Source: Caedibacter taeniospiralis (GTDB taxonomy: Bacteria > Pseudomonadota > Gammaproteobacteria > Francisellales > Francisellaceae). From it: a stretch of 9,673 bases of DNA. Positions 1,932-2,696 of the stretch are shown piece after piece (within the stretch, counting starts at the first letter, position 1; the number at the start of each line of letters is the position of its first letter). Location of the stretch: assembly GCF_002803295.2 (NCBI RefSeq), contig NZ_PGGB02000004.1, positions 40,842 through 50,514 on the forward strand, in the 5' to 3' direction. The notes beneath the pieces are model-generated. The model did not search any database, had not been told where the DNA came from, and saw only the letters and a program-made list of their open reading frames with translations. Made by a program: the position numbers and the translations under genes.

Positions 1932-2696
1932 TTAGTGTGGTGATACAGTGAAATTATCATTGGTATGATGCTGCTTCTGATTCTCGGTATGCTGTTGTGC
2001 CTGGCTTTCATTCAAATACTCAAGGCGTGCACGAAACATGTAACCTGCCCTATTAATCGTTGTAATCAGGGGCTCCTCCGTTGACTCTATTGGCAGCTTT
2101 TTTCTAAGCTTACTGATCAATACATCAACGGTTCTGTCGAGTCCGTCATAGGGGCGACCGTAAACATACCAACATAGCTCATCTCTTGAGACAACCTGGT
2201 ATGGTTTATTGAGCAAAATACTTAGCGCTAAAAACTCAGACAATGTAAGCCGATGATGTTTACCTTTAATGTCCACTACACATTTACGCACTACATCTAA
2301 ACAAAAACCATTAAAAAAAACAGACTGAGGGCTTTTGTTACTCTTTCGTTTTAACCTTATGAGTGTTGAGCGTATCTTTGCAGCAACAATTTTAATATCT
2401 ACTTCGTGATGGATATAATCTGTAATGCCACATTCATACAGCTCTACTTCCCGATTTATATCGATTTTATCCCCAATGACCATGACGGTGATTACATACT
2501 TCTTATGGAGCTCTCTACACAAGTCAATGATTGAAATGCCTGAAATCTGGTAGGATAAAATCACAAAATCAATGGGTTGTACCATTAATGTCTTATCTAA
2601 CTGCAAGGGATTGTAACACCTGATAAAATGACACTCTTGTAGATAACGACCTAATTGATCTATATACCTTTTATCAATGCCTAATGTTAAAATCAA
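1932..2696 (-). CDS. Orphan OmpR/PhoB-family winged-helix transcriptional regulator with an aspartate-less (pseudo-)receiver domain
   Basis: The C-terminal half matches Trans_reg_C: LTLSEFLALSILLNKPYQVVSRDELCWYVYG...LDRTVDVLISKLRKKL...INRAGYMF. The N-terminal ~115 aa aligns position for position with the E. coli OmpR receiver, but the acidic pair is Gly6/Ile7, the phospho-acceptor Asp is Ser48 (codon 2553-2555, context DFVILSYQISG), the Thr is Ile74 and the Lys is His97. The only upstream start is TTG 2694-2696, with GGGAG immediately adjacent, so the start is uncertain. No histidine kinase gene is present in the window. Confidence 0.85.
   Translation of the reverse strand: MILTLGIDKRYIDQLGRYLQECHFIRCYNPLQLDKTLMVQPIDFVILSYQISGISIIDLCRELHKKYVITVMVIGDKIDINREVELYECGITDYIHHEVDIKIVAAKIRSTLIRLKRKSNKSPQSVFFNGFCLDVVRKCVVDIKGKHHRLTLSEFLALSILLNKPYQVVSRDELCWYVYGRPYDGLDRTVDVLISKLRKKLPIESTEEPLITTINRAGYMFRARLEYLNESQAQQHTENQKQHHTNDNFTVSPH

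Follow-up and report, generated by a model that had tools for sequence, protein, structure and literature searches.

How does a regulator of the two-component type act once the residues that receive the phosphoryl group are gone, and what does it control? The question arises in Caedibacter taeniospiralis, an obligate 'killer' endosymbiont of Paramecium, at a gene that lies within 9,673 nucleotides (nt) of contig NZ_PGGB02000004.1 (hereafter the window, meaning the whole stretch of DNA that was analysed, at ~38% G+C and with five large open reading frames, ORFs). A preliminary description of this DNA had seen there an OmpR-type regulator with no kinase, and the interval 1932..2696 is exactly the ORF of this regulator, stop codon included. 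The explanation that we favour, with more confidence than doubt, is that its product is an atypical transcription factor of the OmpR/PhoB family whose receiver is aspartate-less.

The phosphotransfer site was read from residue equivalences in HMMER pairwise alignments (RegX3, BaeR, MtrA etc.) and in MAFFT alignments with OmpR and PhoB, with the nearest relatives and with 77 canonical relatives; in these 77, the corresponding columns hold D/E, D, D, T/S and K in ~90% of sequences. In the regulator, the acidic pair of OmpR (D11/D12) is G6/I7, the acceptor D55 is S48 (at the end of beta3 in the structural model), K105 is H97 and the proline at the next position is E98, while Tyr94, the Y/F switch residue, is kept. 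All alignments uphold Gly6/Ile7, Ser48 and His97 as they had been assigned in the preliminary description. Its reading of the Thr position needs a correction: the ungapped stretch from beta4 to Tyr94 makes Gly75, not Ile74, the equivalent of OmpR T83, so that the earlier residue was off by one, but the hydroxyl residue is gone all the same, there being none anywhere in V73-I74-G75. With all five phosphotransfer residues replaced, the aligned protein falls outside the canonical response regulators and, as had been supposed, appears unable to act as a conventional two-component receiver; its incapacity for standard Asp phosphotransfer is well supported by the alignments.

Ser48 does not appear to be an artefact of sequencing or of the choice of start codon, two errors for which the preliminary description had allowed. 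It is found in the independent assemblies L003 and L005-L010 and in the homologs P0003 and P0005; its codon, TCC, is at least two substitutions away from Asp. The same residues are present in the C. taeniospiralis assemblies and read sets L005-L010 (proteins P0153-P0158) and in a 90%-identical metagenomic relative (L003/L004). The 37 residues that precede the first ATG are conserved at the protein level in P0003 and P0005, which argues that the TTG start is real; since this start is also common to the window and L003, the gene calls that begin at Met38 (P0002, P0158) are best read as mis-calls. An AGGA Shine-Dalgarno sequence stands at 2705-2708, 8 nt 5' of the TTG. The public collection holds an identical protein (P0001), and near-identical ones are labelled 'response regulator transcription factor [Caedibacter taeniospiralis]'.

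The predicted receiver is structurally complete but without phosphotransfer chemistry. A Pfam search, as called for in the preliminary description, gives a mixed answer: Trans_reg_C (PF00486) is matched over residues 146-221 (profile positions 2-77 of 77) at 62.5 bits against a cut-off of 26.2 (E=3.9e-17), whereas Response_reg (PF00072), matched over residues 27-105, stays under its cut-off (21.5 against 30.2 bits), and the receiver fold is seen in an AlphaFold2 model instead. This model, built on an 80-sequence alignment, has a mean predicted local distance difference test score (pLDDT) of 91.8 and contains all ten receiver elements and a standard winged helix. The (beta-alpha)5 elements are modelled at pLDDT >90, the strands at residues 2-5 (beta1), 24-27 (beta2), 44-48 (beta3), 70-75 (beta4) and 93-96 (beta5), and the helices at 9-18 (alpha1), 30-39 (alpha2), 56-66 (alpha3), 80-88 (alpha4) and 101-119 (alpha5). 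Compared with the PDB by Foldseek, the whole chain is closest to full-length KdpE, RpaA, PrrA and PmrA, with CosR and the atypical HP1043, RitR and GlnR also returned; the receiver by itself superposes on those of BfmR, RstA and VicR with a template modelling (TM) score of ~0.8 and a root mean square deviation of 2.2-2.3 A. The output domain, described earlier as an intact winged helix, is indeed so by its Pfam score and by a Foldseek TM of 0.85 to the RstA DNA-binding domain; among PDB sequences, it matches the DNA-binding domains of RstA, OmpR and PhoB, and its recognition helix DRTVDVLISKLRKKL is close to the family consensus.

A winged helix above the Pfam threshold and a receiver fold in the predicted structure place the protein in the OmpR/PhoB family, and a receiver fold that lacks the D site is what defines an aspartate-less receiver (ALR) or pseudo-receiver (PMC12632262), a definition that the modelled regulator fits. 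It can be given no more specific name. It aligns end to end with the NCBIfam models VirG, ArcA, OmpR, TorR and PhoB at 75-89 bits, against cut-offs of 270-344 (VirG, the top score, 89.3 against 344; OmpR 82.5 against 331; NblR 59.4 against 300); with scores so far under the cut-offs, it is the equivalog of none of the named models VirG, ArcA, OmpR, TorR, PhoB, NblR or CpxR. Among PDB sequences it matches canonical regulators best, namely RegX3 (57.5 bits), BaeR (54.3 bits) and MtrA.

Close relatives are few. When 1.84 billion representative proteins were scanned exhaustively with HMMER, no more than three clusters fell below 1e-30: the metagenomic near-relative P0002; P0003, from Fastidiosibacter lacustris, at 50% identity to the regulator; and P0005, at 43%, from a 915-bp read-assembly contig. 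The more distant matches that were aligned (a subset of P0006-P0102) are ordinary regulators with the full DD/D/T/K set. Across the clade, G-[IV] at the acidic pair and Ser at the acceptor site are invariant, as are C27 and C60, two of the seven Cys of the regulator. The T and K positions vary, with Ser and Lys in the Fastidiosibacter ortholog and Ala and Ser in P0005, and position 8 is D or H, His being found in P0005. From this pattern, the loss of the acidic pair and of the Asp would be old, and T and K would have been lost later, in a lineage-specific manner.

The gene seems to be maintained. Between the window and L003, the ratio of nonsynonymous to synonymous substitution rates (dN/dS) is 0.26 over residues 1-225 (dS 0.20), with 0.40 for the receiver and 0.21 for the DNA-binding part, which points to purifying selection. 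The ORF is intact in the window, L003 and L005-L008, and none of the assemblies examined shows a frameshift or a stop; in L009 an assembly gap (a run of N) falls inside the tail, and in L010 the contig ends within the gene.

Regulators of this kind have precedents, of which HP1043 and ChxR, both orphans and constitutive dimers, are the closest in function. HP1043 (HsrA) of Helicobacter pylori forms a constitutive dimer through alpha4-beta5-alpha5 and activates transcription without phosphorylation. Like it, the regulator is an orphan that lacks the acceptor Asp, and the two match over the whole chain in Foldseek (PDB 2hqr/2pln, E=4e-10). Their sequence match (24.4 bits, E=1.2e-4) is however weaker than those of RegX3 and BaeR, and HP1043 is an essential global regulator while the gene studied here is restricted to two genera. 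ChxR of Chlamydia trachomatis (PMC3960148) is similar in combining an OmpR-type output with the absence of an acceptor Asp and of a partner kinase in an obligate intracellular organism; without being phosphorylated, it forms dimers, binds to direct repeats and activates transcription (PMC3960148). The differences are that its acceptor site is Glu rather than Ser, that it lacks some secondary structure in the pocket region (PMC4395418) where our model keeps all ten elements, and that it is absent from the PDB sequence matches at E<=1e-3, so no specific sequence relationship is seen. The regulator thus appears to lie outside the ChxR and HP1043 orthologous groups, and because HP1043 matches less well than canonical regulators and ChxR has no match, the Asp would have been lost here independently. 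In ALRs at large, Ser ranks third among the residues that replace the Asp (15%), and no output type includes more ALRs than the OmpR type (609 sequences, 2% of this architecture) (PMC4395418). The first acidic residue is usually retained in them (65%), as are Thr/Ser (61%) and a basic residue, Lys or other, at the Lys position (70%) (PMC4395418); the regulator, which has lost all of these and kept only the switch residue Y94, is more degenerate than the average. The aspartate-less OmpR-type class is therefore well established, and the alignments make the regulator a further, independently derived member of it.

What could replace phosphorylation is suggested by the dimer face. In active dimers of PhoB and ArcA, the R/E and D/R positions of alpha4-beta5-alpha5 form inter-subunit salt bridges. 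In all three lineages of the clade, this face departs from the canonical one at positions that are strongly conserved among canonical relatives (R to E83, L to Y87, D to T/I/V92, E to I103 and R to K107). Changes of such a kind are proposed to bias the pseudo-receivers ChxR, HP1043 and GlnR toward constitutive dimers (PMC12632262), and we infer that the clade-conserved hydrophobic replacements of charged pairs match a constitutively sticky interface. We hypothesize that the regulator binds DNA as a phosphorylation-independent dimer via its remodelled alpha4-beta5-alpha5 face, as in ChxR and HP1043. Its output would then be set mainly by the amount of protein and not by a kinase, with autoregulation through a conserved upstream element as a possibility. 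The absence of a kinase gene nearby, already noticed in the preliminary description, holds over a larger distance: there is no HATPase_c or HisKA domain in the large ORFs of the window (Pfam, NCBIfam), in the 10 kb downstream of the gene in L007 or in the collinear L009. That the regulator is an orphan, with no adjacent kinase gene within ~7 kb upstream or 10 kb downstream, is well supported by these searches.

Which genes it would act upon can be approached from synteny. In strain assembly L007 (GCA_044375175.1), the regulator is followed by an orf441 homolog, a WipA-phosphatase-like gene, a gene for a 241-residue protein, a Lipase_3 gene, dotH/icmK, dotG (TrbI) and further Dot/Icm genes; dotH begins 6.1 kb past the regulator stop. 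In the window strain, where dotH shares a 101.9-kb contig with the window protein, it would be ~4 kb from the regulator if the order is collinear with L007. The F. lacustris ortholog shares its strand with genes for a type IVb pilus, which begin 583 nt downstream of it (intervening region L001 10718-11299) and encode a bundlin-like pilin, TcpQ, a secretin and a GspE-type ATPase. In Cysteiniphilum, the same pilus cluster, with an ATPase that is 78% identical, runs directly into genes for a 795-residue and a 352-residue protein and then into dotH/dotG; this layout, a complete set of bundlin, TcpQ, secretin and ATPase genes immediately upstream of the Dot/Icm operon on one strand, is seen on L013 (4149-16440 and 16573 onward) and L014. 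An uncalled remnant of the 352-residue gene (62% over 96 residues) persists at L007 6190-6462, just upstream of dotH on the strand of the regulator, and indicates gene loss at this site in Caedibacter; among the close relatives of the pilus ATPase, there is no Caedibacter protein.

The most economical history starts from an ancestor with the order regulator, pilus cluster, 795-residue gene, 352-residue gene and Dot/Icm; Caedibacter would then have lost the pilus genes and gained effector-like genes in their place. This chain of synteny from Fastidiosibacter through Cysteiniphilum to L007 of Caedibacter argues that the regulator was historically linked to a pilus/secretion supercluster, of which, in the Fastidiosibacteraceae, it would seemingly have been the first gene. 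Since the pilus genes are gone in Caedibacter, its most likely targets there, as judged from synteny only, would be the effector-like genes beside it, the Dot/Icm operon or both. Synteny is the only evidence on targets, and it points to the pilus/Dot-Icm supercluster at least as much as to the two membrane-protein genes upstream of the regulator. IncI plasmids couple a thin type IVb pilus with a Dot/Icm-like transfer system, an arrangement that the proposed ancestral order and the Cysteiniphilum layout resemble. One may go further and imagine the regulator as the founder of a small Fastidiosibacteraceae-specific clade of kinase-independent OmpR-type activators that first drove a linked IVb-pilus/Dot-Icm (IncI-like) supercluster; in Caedibacter, the pilus once lost, it would have been kept and rewired to Dot/Icm effector-like genes for life in Paramecium; we think this scenario unlikely. 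If true, an obligate endosymbiont would have a constitutive, signal-free master switch, similar to ChxR but tied to type IVB secretion.

A known parallel is PmrA of Legionella and Coxiella (PMC4117601, PMC7104363), another OmpR-type regulator in a Dot/Icm bacterium; here the gene is a few kb from dotH, among effector-like genes. The parallel is partial: PmrA is canonical and phosphorylated by PmrB, while the regulator is not phosphorylatable in that way, and PmrA controls Dot/Icm effector genes, while the link of the regulator to Dot/Icm is drawn from position only.

The upstream region offers a possible point of autoregulation. An element of the form TGT[GA]AGTTTTCT lies there, with a counterpart in Fastidiosibacter (TGTAAGTTTTCT, 96 nt before the start, L001 9905-9916) and a partial match, GAGTTTTCTATTG, in L002; among 2000 shuffles, a 12-mer common to L001 and L002 appeared in 15, an 8-mer common to all three in 31, and both in 0. 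As an auto-operator or promoter element it is a reasonable candidate, to be treated as a lead only. In L003, orf491 is cut to a 21-codon remnant, yet the regulator and its upstream region persist; because these 259 nt stay ~90% conserved despite the loss of orf491, the regulator probably has its own control region.

Several observations weigh against the explanation of a kinase-independent transcription factor tied to this locus. DNA binding, dimerisation and targets are all predictions from sequence, and Ser48, the His pair 96/97 and several Cys leave room for another input signal. No convincing repeated operator is common to 241-473, 2697-2955 and 7463-7749 (search for repeats, including direct repeats), intervals that take in the three regions proposed for binding in the preliminary description, and the window contains no PmrA-box-like tandem TTAAT repeat. 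In L005-L008, the sequence is unrelated upstream of -13 (window 2697-2709 is retained). Window and L007 differ by 9 nonsynonymous and 2 synonymous changes, numbers too small to interpret that could reflect relaxed constraint in that lineage. The Dot/Icm linkage itself is not conserved: F. lacustris carries dotH, preceded by housekeeping genes, on a different contig from the regulator ortholog, and the effector block is thus peculiar to Caedibacter. In Cysteiniphilum, no regulator gene precedes the pilus cluster, and no homolog was found in Cysteiniphilum or Facilibium, both of which have Dot/Icm.

As an alternative, the pseudo-receiver may still sense, another input switching its dimerisation or DNA binding: a small ligand, Cys redox, Ser/Thr phosphorylation (e.g. 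of Ser48), a metal for which His96/His97 and the His-rich tail would be the ligands, or a partner protein that sequesters it. Comparable mechanisms are reviewed for other pseudo-receivers, with ligands for JadR1/RedZ, Cys redox for RitR and sequestration of Rem by MirA (PMC4395418, PMC12632262), and a fold fully kept under purifying selection (at a receiver dN/dS of 0.40), an invariant Ser at the D position and the clade-conserved C27 and C60 among seven Cys are compatible with such a role. The individual inputs fare less well: the pocket varies within the clade (97 is K/H/S, 75 is S/G/A and 8 is D/H), against one conserved ligand pocket; C22 is variable even among C. taeniospiralis strains; the His-rich tail is not found outside the species; and neither a Ser/Thr kinase nor a partner gene is seen in the window or in the L007 neighbourhood. 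We therefore regard an alternative input as possible though doubtful. A conventional phospho-acceptor at another acidic residue, with the kinase encoded elsewhere, deserves next to no credence: D8 adjoins the former acidic pair, and D42 and D76 are near the ends of beta3 and beta4, but the metal-binding pair, Thr and Lys are gone and with them the catalytic apparatus for phosphotransfer, and none of the three is conserved in P0005, where D8 is replaced by His. To our knowledge, phospho-acceptance by another acidic residue in such a receiver has no precedent.

The regulator might also be a decaying two-component relic, its frame still open but useless, as could be expected of an obligate endosymbiont whose regulatory capacity is reduced (PMC7297999). 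The replacement of the promoter region from -13 in L005-L008, the excess of nonsynonymous differences from L007, clustered at residues 125-140, and the Fastidiosibacter pilus cluster that has no close Caedibacter counterpart all go in this direction. Decay is nevertheless hard to reconcile with a loss of DD and D that is older than Caedibacter, being common to Fastidiosibacter and P0005 (43-50% identity), with a dN/dS of 0.26 at a dS of 0.20, with the absence of any frameshift or stop and with a near-consensus recognition helix in a high-confidence model; a relic is, in our view, decidedly improbable. The aspartate-less transcription factor remains our preferred explanation, and the features on which it is built are collected in the table together with their neighbours.

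Table. Features of the window, with positions counted from its first nucleotide.
Feature	Position	Strand	Description and basis
Aspartate-less OmpR/PhoB-type regulator, coding sequence	1932..2696	-	254 residues; TTG 2696-2694, stop 1934-1932; ORF list, Pfam, NCBIfam
Pseudo-receiver, residues 1-119	2340..2696	-	beta1-alpha5 complete in the model; AlphaFold2, Foldseek, alignment columns
Ser48 codon TCC, phospho-acceptor position	2553..2555	-	Alignments; Ser retained by all clade members
Winged helix-turn-helix output domain, residues 125-221	2034..2324	-	Pfam, PDB sequence matches, Foldseek
Gln/His-rich C-terminal tail, residues 226-254	1935..2021	-	C. taeniospiralis-specific; low pLDDT; comparison with L003, P0003, P0005
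Regulator upstream intergenic region	2697..2955	-	259 nt, ~90% identical in L003
Conserved upstream element TGTGAGTTTTCT	2784..2795	-	Candidate; 99 nt ahead of the start codon; same sequence in L003 and L009
orf441	474..1799	+	Convergent downstream neighbour; orphan soluble protein, 94% identical in L007
orf491	2956..4431	-	Upstream neighbour; orphan, 54-residue bilobed hydrophobic hairpin at residues 413-466
orf976	4532..7462	-	Upstream neighbour; orphan, hydrophobic hairpins, acidic C-terminus; singleton cluster
orf403	7750..8961	+	Orphan, long bilobed hydrophobic hairpin
Lipase_3-family gene, 3' end	1..240	+	tblastn of the L007 lipase, 97% over 79 residues
AAA-ATPase_like (PF09820) gene, 5' part	9181-9673	+	91.6 bits; runs off the window end

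Long hydrophobic hairpins, with an acidic stretch in the case of orf976, are typical of secreted membrane effectors; the members of the orf491 cluster are all C. taeniospiralis hypothetical proteins. The preliminary description had placed the regulator on the same strand as two membrane-protein genes and directly downstream of them, which is so, the gap being 259 nt, and among effector-like genes, which other strains bear out: within 6 kb they have genes for a WipA-like phosphatase and a Lipase_3 protein as well as the operon of dotH, dotG and further genes. That the regulator would be dedicated to this island is plausible, on the basis of proximity only; counting against the idea, none of orf441, orf491, orf976 and orf403 accompanies the Fastidiosibacter ortholog. 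A conserved three-gene module was likewise rejected: orf491, orf976 and orf403 have no homologs near that ortholog. Collinearity with L009 extends over window 8566..473, at 96%. At the junction at window 473-521, a 2.3-kb segment is missing relative to L007 2359-4664 (the WipA-phosphatase-like gene, 455 residues, and the 241-residue gene); in L007 and L008 it separates orf441 from the Lipase_3 gene, and the WipA-like gene is present in L009 too. An 88-nt intergenic element occurs in 81%-identical copies at window 283-372, downstream of the lipase, and at L007 9092-9179, between dotG and the next Dot/Icm gene; it holds a GTGTGAGT/ACTCACAC palindrome and may be a small repeated palindromic element.

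The C-terminal extension rich in Gln and His, which had been pointed out as unusual, is present (residues ~226-254) but not conserved beyond C. taeniospiralis: the 90%-identical L003 is homologous only as far as window 2035, at about residue 221, and P0003 and P0005 have no such tail, both ending shortly past the wing. Modelled at pLDDT 60-80, it is read as a lineage-specific read-on and not as a conserved functional module. Strains of C. taeniospiralis further show a cluster of polymorphisms at residues 125-140 (window 2275-2324), S125F, G130R, V135I, V136P and V140L; this stretch, which lies in the N-terminal beta-sheet of the DNA-binding domain, has no synonymous changes. A C22-x4-C27 redox motif was considered and dropped, since both L003 and other strains of C. 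taeniospiralis have Gly in place of C22.

Around the upstream region, the remnants of the last codons of orf491 in L003 (885-1108) are interrupted by a 126-nt insert, with another gene, for a 173-residue protein, upstream. The unrelated upstream stretch of L005-L008 makes up the first 26-138 nt of their contigs, and it creates an alternative TTG start (MELILTLG...); because this sequence is unrelated and all four contigs break within 140 nt, it suggests that a repeat or insertion sequence element was inserted directly upstream of the Shine-Dalgarno sequence. Another 12-mer, TGATAAGAATTT, common to the upstream regions of the window and Fastidiosibacter, was discarded: the 90%-identical L003 does not preserve it, and 47 of 3000 shuffles produce it by chance. 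Promoter and terminator scans round the regulator did not exceed the counts obtained from shuffles, the window has no Rfam or tRNA matches, and the supplement of the C. taeniospiralis Dual-Seq paper (PMC7297999) contains no expression entry for a response regulator.

Pseudo-receiver regulators are common and their switching is largely unknown (PMC12632262). The practical impact of the present one is limited by an organism that is unculturable and genetically intractable. The regulator is nonetheless an unusually clean case, with five catalytic residues gone, the predicted fold kept and the dimer face remodelled in a clade-specific manner, and it is among the very few transcription factors encoded beside the Dot/Icm system of a Paramecium killer symbiont. 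With Fastidiosibacter as an intermediate relative that kept the Ser/Thr and Lys positions, the clade could provide a small model for how a receiver becomes kinase-independent.

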